Below are positions 38,768 through 48,526 of a stretch of 64,000 bases of DNA, in pieces. The notes under the pieces were generated by a model. The model had not been told where the DNA came from, ran no database searches, and worked only from the letters and a program-made list of their open reading frames with translations. The translations under genes and the position numbers were made by a program. Position 1 is the first letter of the stretch; the number at the start of each line of letters is the position of its first letter. Source of the stretch: Gemmatimonadales bacterium (lineage in GTDB: Bacteria; Gemmatimonadota; Gemmatimonadetes; Gemmatimonadales; GWC2-71-9); NCBI GenBank assembly GCA_035526925.1, contig DATLBL010000100.1, positions 37,570-101,569 of the forward strand, given 5' to 3'.

Positions 38768-38986
38768 ATGGCCAAGGAAGAAGGGATCGAGATGGAGGGG
38801 GTCGTGACCGAGGTGCTGCCCGACCGAAATTATCGGGTCATGCTCGAGAACGGCCACGAGATCCTGGCATACGCCGCCGGGAAGATGAGCAAGTTCAAGA
38901 TCCGCGTACTGGAAGGCGACCGCGTCAGTGTCGTCCTCTCTCCCTACGATCTCACCCGGGGCCGAGTCATCTACCGCCACAAGTGA
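38768..38986 (+). CDS. infA: translation initiation factor IF-1
   Basis: 72 aa: [72 protein letters not shown]. Confidence 0.96.
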
Positions 38987-39057
38987 AGCCGTGCGAAACC
39001 CGTGCTCACCCTGTTGACGAAGGGTCTCGAGCGCGTTCACGACTCTCCTACGACAAC

Positions 39058-39079
39058 GGGCCGCTCTCTCGAGCGGCCC
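39058..39079. terminator. bidirectional terminator hairpin between convergent infA and csp
   Basis: GGGCCGCTC-tctc-GAGCGGCCC forms a 9-bp perfect stem. Confidence 0.65.
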
Positions 39080-39102
39080 GTCGCGTATCGCTGGCGTCGA
39101 CC

Positions 39103-39315
39103 TTACTTCACCTTGGTGACGTTTTCAGCGGCAGGCCCCTTCGCACCCTGCACGATGTCGAATTCCACCCGGTCACCCTCGGCGAGGCTGCGGAAGCCCT
39201 CGGCCTTGATGGCGGTGTGGTGGACAAAGCAATCCTTGTCCCCGTTCTCTGGAGTGATGAAACCAAAGCCCTTCGCGTCGTTGAACCACTTCACCGTGCC
39301 TAGGGTGCGAGCCAT
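39103..39315 (-). CDS. cspA: cold-shock protein (CspA family)
   Basis: 70 aa: [31 protein letters not shown] (RNP1/RNP2 motifs). Confidence 0.95.
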
Positions 39316-39372
39316 TGCTCCTACTCCGTGTTTATTTGACTGCGTCGGCGCCCGGGCGTGCCGCTCGCCGAG

Positions 39373-39409
39373 TTTTTATGAGCGCAGGCCCATCCTGCGT
39401 CATAAAAAG
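39373..39409 (-). promoter_or_regulatory. long hairpin in the csp 5' leader
   Basis: The minus-strand RNA UUUUUAUGACGCAGG-auggg-CCUGCGCUCAUAAAAA forms a 15-bp stem with one bulged G. It is preceded by a GGCUGAC-UUCG-GUCGGCC tetraloop hairpin. Confidence 0.55.
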
Positions 39410-39494
39410 CGTGTGGCCGACCGAAGTCAGCCGTAACCGTTCGAATGTGAGATTGATGTTGGTCAGGCGCGGTAAATGTGCAGCCGGGCTGCGT

Positions 39495-41249
39495 TTAGTC
39501 AAGAGGGGATCCGCGGAGCCACCGGGCGGCCGCCCGGGCCCAGTCGGCCACCGGCTCGCGACCCTCGGTGTCCGCCGCTCGATTGAGCGCCTGCAGGAAC
39601 TCCGCCGCCGAAGGGAACCGGCTCTCCACGTCGGCGCTCAGCGCGCGATTCAACACCCGCTCGAGCGCCTCGCTGACGTCCTCGCGGCGGTCGGCGGCCG
39701 TCGGAAGCTGATTGGTGGTCTGCCTCGCGAGCACCTGTTCGGTGGTAGCCCCAGGGAAGGGCGGGGTGCCGAGCAGCGCGTAGTAGACGACGGCCGCGAG
39801 GCTGTAGAGATCGGAGCGCTGGTCCACCCGTTCGCCCAACAACTGTTCGGGGCTCGCGAACTGCGGCGTGCCGCTCTGGCTGGTCGCGCCGCCGTACTTG
39901 CCCCGCAAGGCCAGCGCGAGGCCGAAGTCCGTGATCTGCACGCTCCCGGTGGGATCGATCAGGATGTTCTCCGGCTTGATGTCCCGGTGGACGAGCCCGG
40001 AGCCATGCGCGTGCGCGAGCGCCGAGAGCGCCTCGCGCAGCAGTCGGAGCACCTGGTCGAGCGTCAACGGACCATCCCGCTCCACCAGCTGCGCCAGGCT
40101 GGGGCCGTCGATCAGCTCCATGGTGTACCAGATGAGGCCGAACCGCCCCGCGATATCGTAGATGTTCACGATGTTCGGATGGCTCAGCCGGGCGGCGAGC
40201 TGCGCCTCTCGCCGAAACCGTTCCACCACCTCGGGATCTTCGGTCAGCGCCGGGTGCAGCACCTTGAGCGCCACGAGGCGCTCGAGATGAAGGTCTCGCA
40301 CCCGGTACACACGGCCGAATCCGCCTGTGCCGAGCAGGACGAGCAGCTCGTAATCGTCGCCGAGCGCGCGGCGGAGCCACTTCTCCCATCGCGTCCGGTC
40401 TTCGGTCCCCGTCAGTGGGCCGTGCACCACGCCCGCGGCGCGGGTCTCGAACGTCCCGGCATCGGTCGCGAAATCCTCGAGCATCTCCGCCGCCGTGAGA
40501 TACCGGGATTCGGGCGCCGGCGTGAGCGCCCGGAGCACGATGCGCTCGATCGCGCGTGGACACGTCGGTCGCAGCTCGGTCGGCCGTCGTAGATCCCGCG
40601 GATCGAGCGGCGGCGCCTGGCCGGTCACCGCGTAGTAGATCAGCGCCCCGGCGGTATAGACGTCGCACGCCGGGTCGCCCACCGCGCCGTCCCGGATCTC
40701 CGGTGCCATGAACATCGTCATGTCGGGTGTGGCGCCGGTCGGCACCGCCGGAAGCGTGTAGCTGCTGTAGCGCAGGTCGGTGATGGTGCCGCGTCCGCTC
40801 GACCCGACGAGTACCGACGCCGGCACGATCCGCCGGACGACGACGCCCTGCAGGTGGGCATGCTCGAGCGCCCCCAGCAGGTCACGCGCCAGCGCCAGGA
40901 CCGCGGGGATGATCCGCGGGCCGCGCTCGATCGCGTCCGCCAGTCCTTCGCCCTCGATCCAGTTGCCGATCCGGAAGGCCAGGTCACCCACCACGCCGAC
41001 GTCGTACACGTGCCGGATGGCCGGATGGTCGAGTTGGCCCAGCGCCTCGGCCTCGCGCAGAAACCAGGCGCGGGTGGCGTCGTCCCCGTAGAAGTTGATC
41101 CGGACGCTGACCCGGCGCTTGAGCGTCTCGTCGTGCGCCTCGAACAGCACGCGATCCGCGTTCGAGGCGGCGATCCGCTCCAGCCGGTAGCGGCCGCCGA
41201 GCGCCGCGCGGGTCCGTTCGAAGGCCTCGACCGGATCGGGACCGCTCAC
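39495..41249 (-). CDS. soluble tandem pseudokinase / Ser-Thr protein kinase
   Basis: The C-terminal domain is canonical (GTGGFGRVY, VALKVL, HRDIKPENIL, DFG, SPE). The N-terminal domain is kinase-like but lacks the catalytic motifs. I set the start at GTG 41249, which overlaps the CGNR gene stop (GTGA); the track start at 41474 lies inside the upstream gene. Confidence 0.85.
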   Translation of the reverse strand: MSGPDPVEAFERTRAALGGRYRLERIAASNADRVLFEAHDETLKRRVSVRINFYGDDATRAWFLREAEALGQLDHPAIRHVYDVGVVGDLAFRIGNWIEGEGLADAIERGPRIIPAVLALARDLLGALEHAHLQGVVVRRIVPASVLVGSSGRGTITDLRYSSYTLPAVPTGATPDMTMFMAPEIRDGAVGDPACDVYTAGALIYYAVTGQAPPLDPRDLRRPTELRPTCPRAIERIVLRALTPAPESRYLTAAEMLEDFATDAGTFETRAAGVVHGPLTGTEDRTRWEKWLRRALGDDYELLVLLGTGGFGRVYRVRDLHLERLVALKVLHPALTEDPEVVERFRREAQLAARLSHPNIVNIYDIAGRFGLIWYTMELIDGPSLAQLVERDGPLTLDQVLRLLREALSALAHAHGSGLVHRDIKPENILIDPTGSVQITDFGLALALRGKYGGATSQSGTPQFASPEQLLGERVDQRSDLYSLAAVVYYALLGTPPFPGATTEQVLARQTTNQLPTAADRREDVSEALERVLNRALSADVESRFPSAAEFLQALNRAADTEGREPVADWARAAARWLRGSPLD

Positions 41250-41791
41250 CGGCGGTTGCCCCGACGCCGCTCCACGACGGCGGTGCCGCCGCAGAGCGTC
41301 GGGTCGCACCAGCGACGACTGCCTGTGGGAGACGGATCGGCGATGAACAGCGAGCAGCTCTCGCCGGCGCAGCGTCGCACGGCGGTGCGGGTCTCGGCGA
41401 GGGTGGCCGCCGCGGACCGGGCGATGGCTTCCAAGGCGCCGGGCGGCCGGGTCGGGGCGAAGCGAAGGCGCCACTCGCCCCCCACCCGGGTGAGCTGGTG
41501 GGTGCCGGCACTCCTGGCCAGCAGCTCGTTCAGTGAGGCGATGGCCCCGGCAGGCGTGCGACCGCCGTCGTGCATCGCCTGCGCGAGCTCGGTGAGCCGG
41601 TCACGGAACTCGACGATGAGTGCGAAGCTCGCCCCCTCGGCGGGGGGCTCGAGGTGCTGGAGCTCGCACCAGCGCGCGAAGGCGGTCGAATCGGGGAGGA
41701 GATCGGGCGAGAACGCGGTGCGCCCGCGGGCGCTGTTGATGAAGTCCAGCCACAGTGCGTCGCCGAGCAGCGTGAACCCGTCGTTGGCCAT
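41246..41791 (-). CDS. ABATE-domain / CGNR-type zinc-finger protein
   Basis: From ATG 41791 it reads MANDGFTLLGDALWLDFINS. The C-terminus is C..C.LFIADPSPTGSRRWCDPTLCGG, a zf-CGNR pattern with CGGT in place of CGNR. Confidence 0.72.
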   Translation of the reverse strand: MANDGFTLLGDALWLDFINSARGRTAFSPDLLPDSTAFARWCELQHLEPPAEGASFALIVEFRDRLTELAQAMHDGGRTPAGAIASLNELLARSAGTHQLTRVGGEWRLRFAPTRPPGALEAIARSAAATLAETRTAVRRCAGESCSLFIADPSPTGSRRWCDPTLCGGTAVVERRRGNRR

Positions 41792-41798
41792 GTCGGGA

Positions 41799-43133
41799 CT
41801 AGTCGTCCGCGACCTCGACGGTGTTGCGGCCGCCACGCTTGGCCTTGTAGAGAGCGGTATCGGCCGCGGCCAGCAGGCTGCTGACCGTCGTCCCATGTTT
41901 CGGGGATTCCGCCACCCCCATGCTGAGAGTGCAGGCGCCGAACTCGGGGCTCTGCTGCTCCATCTCGCGGAGGCTTCCCTGCACGCGGCCCACGAACACC
42001 TGCGCTTCGCTGGGCTTGGTCATCGGCAGGATGACCAGGAACTCGTCGCCGCCGAGCCGCCCCACCACGTCGAGCGCCCGGCACTGCTGCCGGAGGATCT
42101 TGGCCACCTGGATCAGCAGCCGGTCGCCGGCGGCGTGGCCCATGGTGTCGTTGATCATCTTGAAGCGATCGAGGTCGATCAGCAGAACGCTGGTGTGGAG
42201 CTGATGGCGCAGGCTGCGCGAGATCTCGGCGGCCAGCCGTTCCTCGAGCGCGCGCCGGTTGTACAACCCGGTGAGCTCGTCGGTCGTGGCCGCGCTGTGG
42301 AGCTGCTCGACCAGCTCGGAGTTCTTGAGGGCGATGGCCGCCGCGAAGGACAGCGTGCCTGCCAGCTCCAGCTCGGCCCGCCCGTACAGCTTGTCGCTGA
42401 TGCGCGAGCCGAGCACCAGGACCGCCATCCGCTCCGCGCCGGCATCCAGCGGCACCACCAGTTCGGCGCCCGGCCCGATCAGTGCCGCCACCGCGACGTC
42501 GTCGGCGCCGGTCGCGGCGCTCCCCGGCGGCAGCGCCCGGTCGAGCGCGCCCCGGTCGATCGGCGCGGGCCGCAACCGGTCGTTGAGCGAGCGGAACACC
42601 TTGGGGGCGTAGCTCTCACCCTCCGGACGGTACAGGCACGCCCACCAGGCGAAGAAGACCTCGGCCATGAAGTCGAGGATGAGCTGCTCGGTATCCTCGA
42701 TGGAATGCACGGATGAAAGCAGCCGGGCCACCTGCCGGAGTGCCCGAAGCTGAAAGACCGCGTCGTCGAGGGCCCCTTGCCGCTCCAGCAGAATACTGCG
42801 GAGCTCCAGCACCACGCTCAGGCCGAGCGCCAGCGGCATCGCCACGGCCCGCATCTCACCGGCCACCGACGGATCGGCGTGGATCACCACCTCGGTCTCT
42901 CCGCTCCCCAGCCGGGCGACTTCCTGGGCAGCCTCGAAGCCCTTGGCCGGTCCAACCCGGGGCATGCTCTCGGTCGGGGAGTCGAGCGTCAGCCAGATGA
43001 GCTCGCTCTGGAAGCGCCGCACGAGCGCCACCCGGCAACGCTCGAACAGCTCACCCTCGGTACGGGAGAGGCGGCAGGCGGCTGCAAAGGCACTCGGGAG
43101 TGTGGCTAAAGCGGCAGAAGGCAGGGAAGCCAT
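41799..43133 (-). CDS. diguanylate cyclase (GGDEF) with an N-terminal GAF-like sensory region
   Basis: DELTGLYNRRALE...IDLDRFKMINDTMGHAAGD...RALDVVGRLGGDEFLVIL...ALYKAKRGGRN. I chose the start at ATG 43133 (MASLPSAALA). Confidence 0.88.
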   Translation of the reverse strand: MASLPSAALATLPSAFAAACRLSRTEGELFERCRVALVRRFQSELIWLTLDSPTESMPRVGPAKGFEAAQEVARLGSGETEVVIHADPSVAGEMRAVAMPLALGLSVVLELRSILLERQGALDDAVFQLRALRQVARLLSSVHSIEDTEQLILDFMAEVFFAWWACLYRPEGESYAPKVFRSLNDRLRPAPIDRGALDRALPPGSAATGADDVAVAALIGPGAELVVPLDAGAERMAVLVLGSRISDKLYGRAELELAGTLSFAAAIALKNSELVEQLHSAATTDELTGLYNRRALEERLAAEISRSLRHQLHTSVLLIDLDRFKMINDTMGHAAGDRLLIQVAKILRQQCRALDVVGRLGGDEFLVILPMTKPSEAQVFVGRVQGSLREMEQQSPEFGACTLSMGVAESPKHGTTVSSLLAAADTALYKAKRGGRNTVEVADD

Positions 43134-43398
43134 GTTCAAGTATACCCGTAGGCGCCGAAGGTCGGGAGCGGCACCGGACCCACCCGGCAGGCTCACGCCC
43201 GTCCAGCGGCCTGCCGATACCCGGGAGCATGAAAGTTGATCGCCTGTAACGTTGTGTAACAACGACTTGCGTGAGGCCCGGGGACGGGCTACACTTCTCG
43301 CAGACAATTAGAGCATAGCCCTTCGGGGCCCCAGGGATTTCGGCTTTGCGACCTGGGTGACCAAAATCGCTAAGGCTACCGGTCCCGGCGAGCCATGC

Positions 43399-44931
43399 TC
43401 AGCCGGGATTTGCGTTTCCTGCCCGGACGATCCGGCCGGTCGCCGGAGCCGCCACTTCTCCACGCAAGGAATCCGCTACGTACTTCGTCAGCAGGTCCGC
43501 CGCGCGCGGTGCGCTGTCCCGCACGGCGCAGGCGGACTGCGCCTCGGGAATCTGGTAACCGTCGCCGCCTTCGCATGCCGGATAGACCGGGATGGCCACC
43601 TTGAGCGTGTCTCCGGCGCCGATCGTGGGGCCCGCCCTGCGACGCAGCTCTCCCTGAATCCGGGCGCCGGAAGGTTTGGCCGGATCGTAGGTGTAGGACA
43701 CGCCTGAAACCTGCAGGAAACCGCCCTTGCCGAGCGAGCCGTCGGCGACTCCGTGTTCCAGGAGATCCCGAAGCCGGGCGCCGGTCAGCGGGACGGTGAG
43801 CACGCGGGTTTCGTCGGGGAACAGGAAGATCGACTCAAGCTGGTAGCTGCTGATCGGACCGGGCCGGATCACGTCATCCAGGCGGAGCGTTCCGGCGTTG
43901 AGCAAGGCCACGTCGGTGCCGGTGCCCCAACGCATCGCGTCGGTCACCAGGTCGCCCAGCATCGACTCCTGCCGTCGGCCCAGCTCGTCCCTCGCGTCGA
44001 TCGGCACGGAGGTGCGGCCGGCGGGCCGCTCGGGTCCGAGCCGCGCTCGGAGACTGTCCTCCCATCGTTCCACGATCAGGCTGACCGACGTGTCGGCGGG
44101 GAGGCGGTTGTCGATCTTCACTAAACCGACCGCCTGCCGCCAGGCGCCCTTGCCGCCCCAGAGCGTCACGAACTGGGCGGAGCGGGAGTTGGCATCGGCC
44201 TTGACGACGTGGCGGCCGGACACGATCGAATCCTGCGCCTCGTGCTCGTGGCCGCCGAGGATCAGGTCCAGCCGCGGCTCGCGGCCCAGGAGGTCGCGGT
44301 CGGCCTGGATGGTCTGGTGGGTGAGTCCCACGACCAGCTCGGCACCCTGGGCGACCAGCGTGTCGATCGCCTGATGGGCGGCGCTGTCCGGGTCGCTGCA
44401 GCGATAGGCTTTCCGGTACGCGCCCTGGAGCGTGACGGCGAACAGGCCGACCTTCTGGCCGGAGACCCGGACCGTGTCCCACGGGATCACCTTGGCGAAC
44501 GGCGTGCCGTCGGCGCGGGTGCAGTTGCTGGACATCCATTTGAAGGCGGATTCGGCGATCCGGGCCTCGAGCGTGTCGAGCGGAAGCTCGAACTCGTGGT
44601 TGCCGAACGTGGCGTAGTCGAGCTTGGCCGCATTGAACGCCTCGACCATCTGGCGGCCGGAGTAGTACTTGCTCAGCAGGCTCGGACTCAGGACATCGCC
44701 GGCCAGCACGAACAGGACCGGACCCTGGTCGGCGAGTCGCTGACGGACGGTAGCCACCCGCGCCAGGCCGCCCTTCCCGTCGGCCATCGTATCCGCTACG
44801 TACACGTCGTTGACGAGCCGGAAGCGTACCGGGTTGAGCGGTTCGGGCTTGCCGGCGCCGCCGGCACACGCGGCGGCCCCCAGGCAGGCCGCGACCGCGA
44901 CCAGTCCTTTCACTCCAGCACGTACCCTCAC
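43399..44931 (-). CDS. bifunctional metallophosphatase / 5'-nucleotidase lipoprotein
   Basis: LVAVAACLGAAAC is lipobox-like. Calcineurin-like motifs are GDVLSP, GNHEFE and GGHEHE, and there is a C-terminal 5'-nucleotidase domain. The GTG at 44931 overlaps the HD gene stop (GTGA); an alternative GTG lies at 44913. Confidence 0.78.
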   Translation of the reverse strand: MRVRAGVKGLVAVAACLGAAACAGGAGKPEPLNPVRFRLVNDVYVADTMADGKGGLARVATVRQRLADQGPVLFVLAGDVLSPSLLSKYYSGRQMVEAFNAAKLDYATFGNHEFELPLDTLEARIAESAFKWMSSNCTRADGTPFAKVIPWDTVRVSGQKVGLFAVTLQGAYRKAYRCSDPDSAAHQAIDTLVAQGAELVVGLTHQTIQADRDLLGREPRLDLILGGHEHEAQDSIVSGRHVVKADANSRSAQFVTLWGGKGAWRQAVGLVKIDNRLPADTSVSLIVERWEDSLRARLGPERPAGRTSVPIDARDELGRRQESMLGDLVTDAMRWGTGTDVALLNAGTLRLDDVIRPGPISSYQLESIFLFPDETRVLTVPLTGARLRDLLEHGVADGSLGKGGFLQVSGVSYTYDPAKPSGARIQGELRRRAGPTIGAGDTLKVAIPVYPACEGGDGYQIPEAQSACAVRDSAPRAADLLTKYVADSLRGEVAAPATGRIVRAGNANPG

Positions 44932-45545
44932 AGCCCCTCCTCGCTTTGCCGTAGACTCCGCACCATGTCCGCGCTCATCAGCCGTAGCTCCGACAGCATC
45001 TCCCGCCGCGGCCAGTCGCTCCGGGCGGCCAGGATCTCCAGCAGCGATCGATACCACCAGATGGTTTGCTCGGAGCCGGCGCGCGACACCGTCCGGAGAT
45101 ACTCCACGCCCAGCCGGCGCAGGGCCGTCATGGTCGAACCGCAGGCGTGGAGCTCGTCGGCCACGATGATGTCCAGCGCGCGCGGCTCGGCGATGGCGAG
45201 CTGCGAGAGGTATTCCTGCTTGCAGGCCTGCCACGGGCGCTCGTCCCCGCGCCGGGTGAATTTGGGCTCGAGCGCATCCCGCGCCACCGCGAGCGCCACC
45301 GGCCCGAATTTCTCCGAGATCTTCTGCTCGAGGGCCGGCCACTGCTCGGGTGAGCTCTCCTCCAACACGTGGTGGAGGATGCCGGCCACGATCGTCACCT
45401 GCTCGCAGCCGTAGCGCGCGAGAATGATCGCGACGTTGGCGGGGTGGGCCAGGTAATCCATGCCCGCGCCCACCGGGGCGAGCGCATTGTAATACTTAGC
45501 CGCGAATGCGAACGCGTGATTGATGCGGTCGGAATAGCCGTGCAT
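44928..45545 (-). CDS. HD-superfamily-like protein with a non-canonical motif
   Basis: From ATG 45545 it reads MHGYSDRINHAFAFAAKYY...YLAHPANVAIILARYG...AGILHHVLEE. This resembles SpoT/RelA-type HD hydrolase domains, but the HD dyad reads HH. Confidence 0.55.
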   Translation of the reverse strand: MHGYSDRINHAFAFAAKYYNALAPVGAGMDYLAHPANVAIILARYGCEQVTIVAGILHHVLEESSPEQWPALEQKISEKFGPVALAVARDALEPKFTRRGDERPWQACKQEYLSQLAIAEPRALDIIVADELHACGSTMTALRRLGVEYLRTVSRAGSEQTIWWYRSLLEILAARSDWPRREMLSELRLMSADMVRSLRQSEEGL

Positions 45546-45717
45546 GCGGGGTGGGTTGAGGTACGAACCTTGGCTGCGCGAAAACGCCGTCCATCCTGCC
45601 GGGCGACGCAAGGGACCCGCGCGGCTGCGGGTTGACCCCGGTCCGGCAAGGTCCCTTGAATCGCTCGTTATGACGGGGCGGCCCGAAGGTTCAAGGACGC
45701 GCCGATCCCTAATGCCG

Positions 45718-46356
45718 TCACGGAATGCCGAGAAGCTTATGCGTCTGGAGGCTCAGTCGCCAGCGCGGATGGGTCAGGCAGTACTGCAGCGCCGCCCGAG
45801 TATTCGCCTCGCGCGCGGGACCATCCATGGGCTGCAGAAAGAAGTGTCGAAATTCCAGCCCGGCAAACCGCTCCGGTTCGGCGCCCGTCTGCGGGTACAC
45901 CAGCTTCAACTCGTCGCCGCGGGCGACGATCAGCGGGGCGTCGGCCTTGGGGCTTACACACAGCCAATCGATGCCGGGCGGCGGCTCGATTGTGCCGTTC
46001 GTCTCGACCGCCACCTCGAACCCCGCGGAGTGAAGCGCCTCCACCAGCGGCGCATCCAGCTGGAGCAGCGGCTCGCCGCCGGTGCAGACCACCAGTGGGC
46101 GGGCGAGTGGATCACCCGCGGGCCACGCGGATGCGACGGCCGCCGCCAGCTCCGCCGGAGTCCGAAACTTCCCCCCGCCCGCACCGTCGGTGCCTACGAA
46201 GTCGGTGTCGCAGAACCTGCAGACGGCATCGGCCCGGTCCTCCTCGCGGCCAGTCCACAGATTGCAGCCCGCGAACCGGCAGAACACTGCGGGGCGTCCG
46301 GCGTTCGCCCCCTCGCCCTGCAGCGTGTAAAAAATCTCCTTGACCGCGTACGTCAC
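45718..46356 (-). CDS. queE: 7-carboxy-7-deazaguanine synthase (radical SAM)
   Basis: [49 protein letters not shown] contains a CX14CX2C cluster motif. The GTG at 46356 overlaps the queC stop (GTGA). Confidence 0.85.
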
Positions 46357-47051
46357 GCGTGGGCGGCCTGATACCGCGCGGGATCCGGCACGCCGGCCTC
46401 CTCGAAACCCTTGAGCCGGAGGGCGCACGCCTCGCATCGTCCGCACGCGGCACCATCGGAGGCCGGATCGTAGCAGGTGCTCGTGATTCCGAAGTCGAGG
46501 CCGAGAGACAGACCTCGGGCGACGATCTGCGCCTTGGTGAGCATGAGGAGCGGCGCATGAATGGTGAGGCGTGCGCCCTCCACACCCGCGCGCGTCGCCA
46601 GATCCGCCATCCTCGCGTACGCGTCGAGGTACTCGGGGCGGCAGTCGGGATAGCCGCTGTAGTCGAGCGCGTTGGCGCCGAGAAAAATGTCGCGGGCGCC
46701 GAGCGTTTCGGCCCAGGCGAGGGCGAGCGACAGAAAGATCGTATTGCGGGCCGGCACGTAGGTCGACGGGATGCGCGCCCCGATCTCCTCCGGCGGAGTG
46801 TTCTTCGGCACCGGCATGTCGGACGTGAGCGCGGAGCCGCCGAACGCCCGCAGATCGAGGTCGATCACGACGTGCCGCTCGATCCCGAGCCGATGGGCCA
46901 CGCGTCGCGCGGCGTTCAGCTCGATGGCGTGGCGCTGCCCGTAGCGGACGCTGAGCGCGTGCACATCGTATCCGTCGCGCTGGGCAATCGCCGCGGTCGT
47001 GGCCGAATCCATGCCGCCGCTCAGGAGGACGACGGCTTTCCGAGGGATCAT
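46353..47051 (-). CDS. queC: 7-cyano-7-deazaguanine synthase
   Basis: From ATG 47051 it reads [21 protein letters not shown] (PP-loop SGGMDS). The C-terminal zinc cysteines are CYDP...CGRCEAC. Confidence 0.9.
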
Positions 47052-47128
47052 GCGGGTAAGGTAATGCGGTGGGATCGCCCCGTCGTGGCGAAGGTCCGCC
47101 CCGTGCCCCGGGCGGAGCTCACGTCCGA

Positions 47129-48526
47129 TCACATGGCGCGACGAGGACGCCCGAGCAGGAACCGGAGGGCGGCCTCCAGCTCCGGGTAGCGGAAGGAGTA
47201 TCCCGACTCGAGCAGCCGGGCCGGCAGGACGCGCGCACTCGACAACAGGGCCACATCGGCCATCTCGCCGAACGCCAGGCGGAGCGCCGCCGCGGGCACG
47301 GGCACGACGGCCGGGCGGCCCAGCACCCGCCCCAGGGTGGCGGCGAACTCGGCCGAGGTCACGGGCGTGGGGGCGGTGACGTTGACCGGACCCGTGATCG
47401 TATCCGACATGAGGGCGTGGTAGATGGCGCAGACCAGATCGTCGATGGCGATCCAGCTCACATACTGTCGCCCGCTTCCGAGCGGTCCGCCCAGCCCGAG
47501 GCGGAACGGCGGCAGCTGCCGCCCGAGCGCTCCGCCCGCCGGCGTCAGGACGATGCCGAATCGAGCCAATACCGTGCGGATTCCGGAGTCGGCGGCCGGG
47601 CCCGTGGCGCTCTCCCATTCGCGTGCGACGTCGGTCAAGAAGTCGGGAGGCGCCCCGGCCGTCGGGCTCGTCTCGGTCAGCGTCTCGTCACCGCGATTGC
47701 CATAGATGCCGATGGCCGAGGCCGAGACGAAGACGCGCGGCGGCCGGTCCAGGTAGGCGATCGTCTCGGCCAGAAATCGCGTGCCGATTTCGCGGCTCTC
47801 CCGGATGCGGCGCCGGCGGTCGGTGGTCCAGCGCGCCGCGATGTTTTCGCCGGCCAGGTGCACGATCGCATCCAGGCCTTCGAGCTTGGCACGCTCCACG
47901 CGCCCATGGTTGTAGTTCCAGGCGACCTCTCCGGCATCAGCGTGTCCCCGCACCAGCCGGATCACGGTGTGGCCGCCGGTGGTCAGGAACGGCACCAGCG
48001 CTCGGCCGACGAGACCGCTGGCGCCGGTGACCGCGATACGAAGCCGCGGAAGGTGTGCGTAGCGGGCGTGCGCTTCGAGATCGCGTCCGAGCAGCTCGTG
48101 GCGATAGCTCAGCATCCGCTCGAGACGCGGCCGAATCAGCAGCGGCTCGCCCGCGGCGCCCGCGGCGCCAAGCGGCGCCGCATACTCGATCCGGTCGGTC
48201 ATCACGCACGCGGATGCGCCGTCCGGCTCGAACCGGTGCAGATGCCGCCAGCGAGCGAATGGCCCTTCCACCTGCTCATCGGCGAACTGCCGATCGCGCT
48301 CGTAGTCGAGGTGACGGGCGACCCACCGCAGTCCGATCGGCGTCCCGATCCGAAGCACGACACGACCTCCGTCCTCAATCCCACCGGTTCGCTCGAGCAC
48401 CCTGGCGTGCTCCCACGGCGGTGTGAGGCGCTCGAACGCGCCCGGCTGCTCGTGCCATCCGAACACCGTGCTGGTGGGAAACGGAAGTCTGCTGGACCGT
48501 TCGACCACCGCGGGAGAATGTGGCAT
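47129..48526 (-). CDS. SRPBCC-domain / TIGR01777 (YfcH-like atypical SDR epimerase) fusion protein
   Basis: An N-terminal lipid-binding-fold-like region of about 150 aa is followed by [14 protein letters not shown] Rossmann and a DUF1731-like C-terminus ([25 protein letters not shown]). Confidence 0.72.

Follow-up and report, generated by a model that had tools for sequence, protein, structure and literature searches.

A Putative Operon Joining a GGDEF Cyclase, a Divergent ABATE/zf-CGNR Protein, and a Tandem Pseudokinase/Kinase Is Conserved in Gemmatimonadota

What brings a cyclic di-GMP (c-di-GMP) synthase, a zinc-finger protein, and a Ser/Thr kinase together in one short stretch of bacterial DNA? 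The window analyzed here is a stretch of 64,000 nucleotides (nt) from a Gemmatimonadales bacterium (GenBank assembly GCA_035526925.1, contig DATLBL010000100.1, positions 37,570 to 101,569 of the forward strand), and all coordinates below are positions within it. Its minus strand carries, head to tail, genes for a diguanylate cyclase, a protein of the ABATE/zf-CGNR family (hereafter the CGNR protein), and a tandem pseudokinase/Hanks-type kinase. Our analysis suggests that these genes very likely make up one transcription unit with a shared function. The reading that we favor, and hold to be probable rather than firm, goes further: a vertically inherited, Gemmatimonadota-specific three-gene operon would encode a kinase-controlled c-di-GMP module, in which the CGNR protein serves as adaptor or effector.

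Gene Organization

41799..43133, minus strand: diguanylate cyclase gene, 444 amino acids (aa), with an N-terminal GAF-like module, a GAF domain, a long helical linker, and a GGDEF domain (Pfam, NCBIfam)
41246..41791, minus strand: ABATE/zf-CGNR family gene, 181 aa, divergent subfamily (Pfam; profile match to PDB 3H0N, E 3.6e-4)
39495..41249, minus strand: gene for a soluble tandem pseudokinase/Hanks-type Ser/Thr kinase, 584 aa from a GTG start (two Pfam Pkinase stretches)

The junctions were read from the sequence. The cyclase gene runs from an ATG at 43133 to a TAG at 41801-41799 and is followed, after a spacer of 7 nt (TCCCGAC), by the ATG of the CGNR gene at 41791. The TGA of the CGNR gene (41248-41246) overlaps the GTG of the kinase gene (41249-41247) to give GTGA, and the kinase gene ends with a TAA at 39497-39495. 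An initial annotation of this DNA had described three tightly packed genes with a 7-nt spacer and a GTGA overlap, and both junctions were found as described. Its assignment of the proteins to the GGDEF, ABATE/zf-CGNR, and kinase families also held in hidden Markov model searches, where all of them scored above the curated Pfam thresholds. Domain scans, made without a transmembrane or signal-peptide predictor, matched none of the three proteins to a membrane-associated domain family, and all three are presumed, from reading their sequences, to be cytoplasmic.

Conservation of the Operon

Relatives were sought in three scans of a species-representative genome collection, and all those retrieved were metagenome-assembled. 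At least 139 distinct loci with the operon were found, all of them from Gemmatimonadota except two bins that are labeled otherwise and have the same synteny; these two we take to be mis-binned. The initial annotation had asked whether the three genes co-occur in relatives, and the order cyclase-CGNR-kinase was unbroken in every locus with room on both sides (113 of 113). The triad was also intact in a divergent clade where no 5'-nucleotidase gene separates the HD gene from that of the cyclase. The spacer between the cyclase and CGNR genes was 3-13 nt in nearly all loci, while the CGNR stop and the kinase start either overlapped or lay at most 42 nt apart across orthologous loci. The sequencing runs with the locus are soil metagenome DNA, and the carriers of the operon are mostly uncultured. 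At least 139 species-level genomes of this abundant soil phylum keep one CGNR subfamily enclosed by genes for a c-di-GMP cyclase and a Ser/Thr kinase.

Independent gene calls of a relative gave the same picture, with QueC, a radical-SAM protein (QueE), HD_4, Metallophos/5'-nucleotidase, GGDEF (444 aa), ABATE plus zf-CGNR, two Pkinase domains, CSD, the initiation factor IF-1, and peptidase M3. The gene calls of a relative were also used in place of a database entry for the CGNR protein of the window, for which an exact database look-up returned no record. Three proteins of the representative library (P0131, P0144, and P0147) had appeared to be cyclase-CGNR or CGNR-kinase fusions, and were rejected as frameshifted gene calls on metagenome contigs.

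The genes around the triad were syntenic too (the HD gene in 126 loci, queE in 119, queC in 111, and pepF in 101). Because of this the operon appears to be one vertically inherited arrangement with a single origin in one phylum, and not an association that arose repeatedly and independently. Outside this arrangement the picture changed. In a set of 80 canonical CGNR loci drawn from many phyla, one had a kinase gene within 5 kb and two a GGDEF gene, so that no general linkage was seen. The conservation of the neighborhood therefore holds in Gemmatimonadota, but canonical CGNR genes elsewhere are unlinked to either partner. The divergent subfamily, on the other hand, occurred only in the cyclase-kinase context in the searches made, and by these comparisons the linkage to kinase and cyclase is specific to that subfamily.

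The three genes did not diverge at the same rate. The CGNR gene evolves fastest, with a median identity to the window of 55% (range 38-70%) against 85% (61-95%) for the cyclase and 75% (62-88%) for the kinase. Such unequal rates would fit an operon of convenience, in which three independent signaling proteins, not linked biochemically in any direct way, share a transcript within a stable core region and are inherited together. So would the single origin in one phylum, the scarcity of CGNR-kinase and CGNR-GGDEF linkage elsewhere (1 and 2 of the 80 loci), and the fact that queC, queE, the HD_4 gene, the 5'-nucleotidase gene, the cold-shock gene csp, and pepF stand in the same order in most loci. 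The triad itself, however, is never split, while the 5'-nucleotidase gene comes and goes and csp, the neighbor of the kinase gene in 98 of 101 loci, stands apart from it in the few others. The short spacers and stop/start overlaps also persist across the whole range of CGNR identity, and the CGNR subfamily is confined to the triad. Weighing these points, we consider mere co-inheritance an unlikely explanation.

The CGNR Protein

41393..41758, minus strand: ABATE domain, aa 12-133 (PF07336, E 4.6e-17, 63.3 bits against a cutoff of 24.4)
41261..41380, minus strand: zinc ribbon, aa 138-177, C141-x4-C146-x15-C162-x4-C167 (PF11706, E 3.8e-10, 39.8 bits against a cutoff of 24)

The four treble-clef zinc-binding cysteines C141, C146, C162, and C167 are invariant across orthologues. 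The C-terminus carries an invariant Arg-rich tail, E-R-R-R(-G) (E174-R177), for which the subfamily pattern is [VI]-[ED]-R-R-R-G, and RRW motifs are present as well. The initial annotation had called the protein a zf-CGNR type. It does pass the zf-CGNR model, but lacks the N-R of the motif from which the family takes its name: the window protein has C-G-G-T, and N-R-x-K is absent throughout the subfamily, whereas C-G-N-R-x-K is invariant in the nearest canonical family members. A profile search of 1.84 billion representatives returned 5,521 CGNR relatives (50%-identity clusters, E<=0.001). Since only 19 of these 5,521 reach E<1e-30, with a sharp drop in score thereafter, the protein is by sequence comparison a distinct, divergent subfamily without the N-R of the name motif.

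The founding structure of the family is that of Jann_2411 (PDB 3H0N), published in 2009, which was proposed to be a ligand-sensing, nucleic-acid-binding regulator (PMC2954205). The window protein shares with it both Pfam families, a length of about 180 aa, and the four-Cys treble-clef zinc site. The similarity is distant (the profile match listed above), and the window protein differs in lacking N-R-x-K and in ending with the subfamily tail. The reported genomic context of the ABATE/CGNR family consists of regulators and transporters, with no kinases or cyclases (PMC2954205). The family had been described initially as functionally uncharacterized, and our literature search agreed, returning only the 2009 Jann_2411 structure paper and no tested function. 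An AlphaFold2 (AF2) model of the window protein had a predicted local distance difference test (pLDDT) score of 52.5 from a shallow alignment; its secondary structure fits helix-hairpin-helix, and the model is too weak for a fold search or the inspection of a pocket.

The Diguanylate Cyclase

42321..42701, minus strand: GAF domain, aa 145-271 (GAF_3 PF13492, 27.5 bits against a cutoff of 27)
41823..42290, minus strand: GGDEF catalytic domain, aa 282-437 (Pfam), with the I-site RALD at 42069-42080 and the GGDEF motif at 42039-42053

The GGDEF domain scored well above thresholds (PF00990, 162.4 bits against 23.8; TIGR00254, 171.9 against 37.4). The I-site R352-A-L-D355 is followed after five residues by G361GDEF365, as the initial annotation had it, and both motifs are invariant in 71 orthologues. 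The cyclase is accordingly predicted to have an intact active site together with a product-inhibition I-site. The commonest length among database orthologues is 444 aa, that of the window protein, and a GAF domain is also precomputed for many of them.

Residues 1-141 on their own had no match in Pfam. The AF2 model of the cyclase (pLDDT 68.7) has a helix at residues 12-43, a four-stranded sheet, a long helix at 88-140, the GAF domain, a helical linker, and the GGDEF domain. The structures closest to it are phytochrome-GGDEF and GAF-GGDEF proteins, with low template modeling scores (0.27) from a model that is only moderately confident. They include Dcsbis (4ZMU, GAF-GGDEF) and IsPadC (5LLW, phytochrome-GGDEF), which the model resembles in having a sensor, a long helical linker, and a GGDEF domain with an I-site. 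The model suggests that residues 1-141 form a GAF-like helix/sheet module, although the structure search was dominated by the GGDEF domain.

The Tandem Pseudokinase/Kinase

40395..41192, minus strand: N-terminal pseudokinase domain, approximately aa 20-285 (Pkinase, 41 bits alone against a cutoff of 31.7)
39582..40355, minus strand: C-terminal PknB-like kinase domain, approximately aa 299-556 (best PDB match PknB, E 3e-55)

The N-terminal domain has no glycine loop, the VAIK Lys is replaced by Arg50, HRD is V138-R-R140, and DFG is D158-L-R160. Within these degenerate motifs R139, D158, and R160 are conserved in the orthologue alignment, so that the domain has conserved residues of its own and is, as judged from the alignment, a conserved pseudokinase. 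In the C-terminal domain the motifs GxGxxG (GTGGFG), VALK, HRDIKPEN, DFG, and SPE are all invariant among orthologues, and from this complete set of catalytic motifs it is predicted to be an active Hanks-type kinase. The tandem of pseudokinase and kinase in the initial annotation was thereby borne out. A degenerate kinase domain N-terminal to an active one, with the pseudokinase regulating the kinase, is also the arrangement of JAK (JH2-JH1) and of plant tandem kinase proteins. The window kinase has the same order, with no homology implied beyond the kinase fold; it is a soluble, PknB-like bacterial protein, whereas JAK and the plant tandem kinases are eukaryotic. It would add a bacterial example of a pseudokinase-kinase tandem.

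The kinase domain also matches models from phage defense systems, namely the PADLOC PD-T4-6 models (E 4e-118) and mad6, as well as NCBIfam MAD6 and PglW, both below cutoff. On this account the locus might serve in defense against phages, as a module of the PD-T4-6, MADS, or BREX PglW type with a Ser/Thr kinase at its center. The matches, however, span the generic Hanks kinase domain only (MAD6 scores 250 against a cutoff of 460, and PglW 130 against 990), and PADLOC had no match for the cyclase or the CGNR protein. The locus is moreover single-copy and vertically inherited among housekeeping genes, with no mobile or defense-island gene among the annotated neighbors in the relative or the conserved flanking open reading frames. 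We rejected a defense-system identity, which is very improbable when its matches amount to a generic kinase.

Translation and Transcription Signals

The start of the kinase gene at GTG 41249 is an assignment and not a certainty, because the reading frame remains open upstream as far as 41474. The commonest kinase length among database orthologues, 584 aa, supports this start. Two upstream in-frame GTGs, at -64 and -49, were considered and discarded; they are by-products of invariant zinc-finger Trp-Cys and x-Cys codons and give no evidence of a start. Across orthologues the CGNR/kinase junction reads NTGA in 124 of 132 cases, as CTGA in 63, GTGA in 29, ATGA in 22, and TTGA in 10. The alignment indicates that the geometry of the overlap is conserved and that a canonical start codon at this position is not. 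In about half of the kinase genes this codon is CTG, which points either to initiation at a non-canonical codon or re-initiation, or to a start at another position.

Within the 7 nt ahead of the CGNR start no evident Shine-Dalgarno sequence was found, in contrast to csp with its GGAG. Coupled translation would agree with this, and we infer that the CGNR and kinase genes are probably translated by coupling to the preceding gene. The initial annotation had proposed coupling through GTGA. The overlap on which the proposal was based is kept, but the tetranucleotide itself is not, given the frequency of CTGA at orthologous junctions.

43139..43144, minus strand: -10-like hexamer TATACT, 5 nt before the cyclase ATG (sequence and orthologous loci)
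43164..43169, minus strand: GCTC[CG]C box, GCTCCC in the window, exactly 19 nt upstream of the -10-like hexamer (sequence and orthologous loci)

A TAnnnT hexamer is found 5-11 nt ahead of the cyclase ATG in 121 of 124 loci. At the position of the GCTC[CG]C box, with the same spacing, the commonest hexamers are GCTCCC (59 of 121 loci) and GCTCGC (15 of 121). The box may be either an unusual -35 element or a regulator site. As the putative promoter abuts the cyclase ATG, the sequence suggests that the operon mRNA is leaderless or near-leaderless. A sigma-70-type scan of 38900..43700 returned no promoter-like site, the TATACT box included, with an Escherichia coli consensus that differs from the promoters of this organism. 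A terminator scan of the same interval gave a single terminator-like site, located on the other strand. A small GCAGC-CCG-GCTGC hairpin without a clear T-run follows the kinase stop (39480..39492). A c-di-GMP riboswitch upstream of the cyclase gene, suspected from a GCAAAGCC motif, was rejected when Rfam gave no match, and neither tRNA nor tmRNA was found.

Comparison With Known Systems

The initial annotation knew of no described module that joins the three activities. Our literature search likewise found no cyclase-CGNR-kinase module, but it did find precedent in unrelated families. In Pseudomonas aeruginosa the SiaABCD operon encodes a GGDEF cyclase, a small partner, and a protein kinase, and the state of Thr phosphorylation of SiaC decides whether the cyclase SiaD is activated (PMC8457831, PMC7647112). 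The window operon resembles it in combining a cyclase, a small protein, and a kinase, and can be regarded as a functional analogue only. The SiaD model is the best NCBIfam match of the window cyclase, but through the GGDEF domain alone and with a score of 173 against a cutoff of 290, so that the cyclase is not an orthologue; unlike SiaD, it has GAF-type sensor modules. SiaB falls outside the Hanks-type kinases and SiaC outside the ABATE/zinc-ribbon proteins, and SiaABCD includes a PP2C phosphatase, SiaA. The Pfam content of the window operon beside the cyclase is ABATE/zf-CGNR and Pkinase, with no phosphatase gene.

A second precedent is DgcB of Bdellovibrio, an FHA-GGDEF cyclase that is activated by a phospho-peptide (PMC6733907). 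Both systems link a cyclase with Ser/Thr phosphorylation, in the window operon by inference. DgcB reads phosphorylation through its fused FHA domain, whereas Pfam found none in the window operon. Taken together, the comparative evidence supports the operon as proposed from sequence, while its description as unprecedented needs tempering. The complex or fixed stoichiometry that the initial annotation read from the coupling is conjectural.

A Model for Kinase-Controlled c-di-GMP Signaling

How could the three proteins work together? In the kinase-controlled module that we favor, the cyclase, through its GAF modules, and the kinase, under regulation by the pseudokinase, would each sense an intracellular cue, and the kinase would phosphorylate the CGNR protein, the cyclase, or both. 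The CGNR protein might then act in one of two ways. It could bind the cyclase in a manner that depends on phosphorylation and thereby set c-di-GMP output, much as SiaC acts on SiaD. Alternatively, it could provide a nucleic-acid-binding output, possibly responsive to c-di-GMP, at nearby promoters. Any one specific wiring of cyclase, CGNR protein, and kinase is doubtful when taken singly.

A number of observations weigh against a kinase-controlled module. The conserved gene order could partly reflect a slowly rearranging core region, and canonical CGNR loci are not generally linked to kinases or cyclases. In a tightly co-evolving obligate complex one would, on the simplest expectation, not look for a member that diverges as fast as the CGNR protein. 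No Ser or Thr is kept across the whole CGNR subfamily, T101 being V or I in divergent members. Finally, neither a phosphatase nor an FHA domain was found in the operon by Pfam or in the gene calls of the relative.

If correct, the model adds a Hanks-kinase route into c-di-GMP control. The operon also gives a lead to the function of the ABATE/CGNR family, with the CGNR protein as kinase substrate, cyclase partner, or c-di-GMP effector as a testable hypothesis.

A Divergent Small-RNA Candidate

43311..43390, probably about 43302..43428, plus strand: structured small-RNA candidate (covariation), between the 5'-nucleotidase stop and the cyclase promoter

The region upstream of the operon contains a strongly conserved candidate for a structured small RNA, oriented divergently to the cyclase operon and convergently to the 5'-nucleotidase gene. 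One of its elements is a GCCC-loop-GGGC hairpin, with loops that on the plus strand are mostly UUCG, UACG, or GNRA. Another is a helix of 10 bp, interrupted by a single bulge, where 8 of the 10 pairs show compensatory changes and 95% of cells are paired. Pairing between the invariant CCCAGG and CCUGGG would complete a pseudoknot of the H type. The strand was fixed as plus because many G-U pairs exist only in that orientation. Read by eye, a plausible plus-strand promoter (TTGCGT, 17 nt, TACACT), together with a hairpin that precedes a run rich in U, suggests that the RNA is about 125 nt long. The candidate had no match in Rfam 15. Its covariance model found one copy in the window and matches in 93 of the locus records searched (a few duplicate contigs among them). 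The candidate occurs once per locus, in about two thirds of the related loci, and almost all matches lie antisense and upstream of the cyclase gene. A small RNA divergent from a regulator gene is an arrangement known for several small RNA/regulator pairs, and a link between the candidate and the putative nucleic-acid-binding regulator of the operon is speculation.

A direct repeat, GTTACA-N4-GTTACA (plus strand TGTAAC-N4-TGTAAC; 43245..43260), immediately precedes the putative -35 of the promoter for the small RNA; it is unique in the window and conserved only in the closest relatives. From its sequence it looks like a putative site for a direct-repeat-binding regulator.

This region bears on a further possibility, in which the CGNR protein acts locally as a c-di-GMP effector. 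Its ABATE domain would bind the c-di-GMP that is made by the cyclase of the preceding gene, its zinc ribbon would then alter DNA or RNA binding at the promoters of its own operon, the divergent small RNA, or csp, and the kinase would be a separate input to the cyclase. ABATE has been proposed to sense a ligand and to be joined to a treble-clef finger that binds DNA (PMC2954205), the invariant Arg-rich tail and RRW motifs of the CGNR protein agree with such a role, and conserved non-coding boxes are present in the 178 nt that separate the operon from the divergent RNA. Yet the ABATE/CGNR family has no established c-di-GMP-binding motif, the TGTAAC repeat is kept in close relatives only, and the AF2 model of the CGNR protein (pLDDT 52.5) is too poor for a pocket to be inspected. 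We judge a local effector of this kind improbable.

The module under kinase control, which remains our preferred reading, can be combined with this output in its boldest form. The CGNR protein would be the missing link of a new c-di-GMP switch, phosphorylated by a pseudokinase-gated Hanks kinase, and would, in dependence on phosphorylation or c-di-GMP, activate the GAF-GGDEF cyclase, control neighboring promoters including that of the divergent small RNA, or do both. Such a switch is a long shot; if real, it would be the first biochemical function for the large, uncharacterized ABATE/CGNR family.

Neighboring Genes

39103..39315, minus strand: cspA-like cold-shock gene (CSD, E 7.7e-31), with its own Shine-Dalgarno sequence, 179 nt downstream of the kinase gene
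43399..47618, minus strand: upstream genes queC, queE (radical SAM), an HD_4-domain gene, and a lipoprotein-like 5'-nucleotidase/metallophosphoesterase gene (conserved synteny)

The cspA-like gene is conserved as a neighbor of the operon, probably with a transcript of its own. A weak match to the cspA thermoregulator (40.6 bits against a gathering score of 78) was seen at this gene, mainly over the coding sequence.

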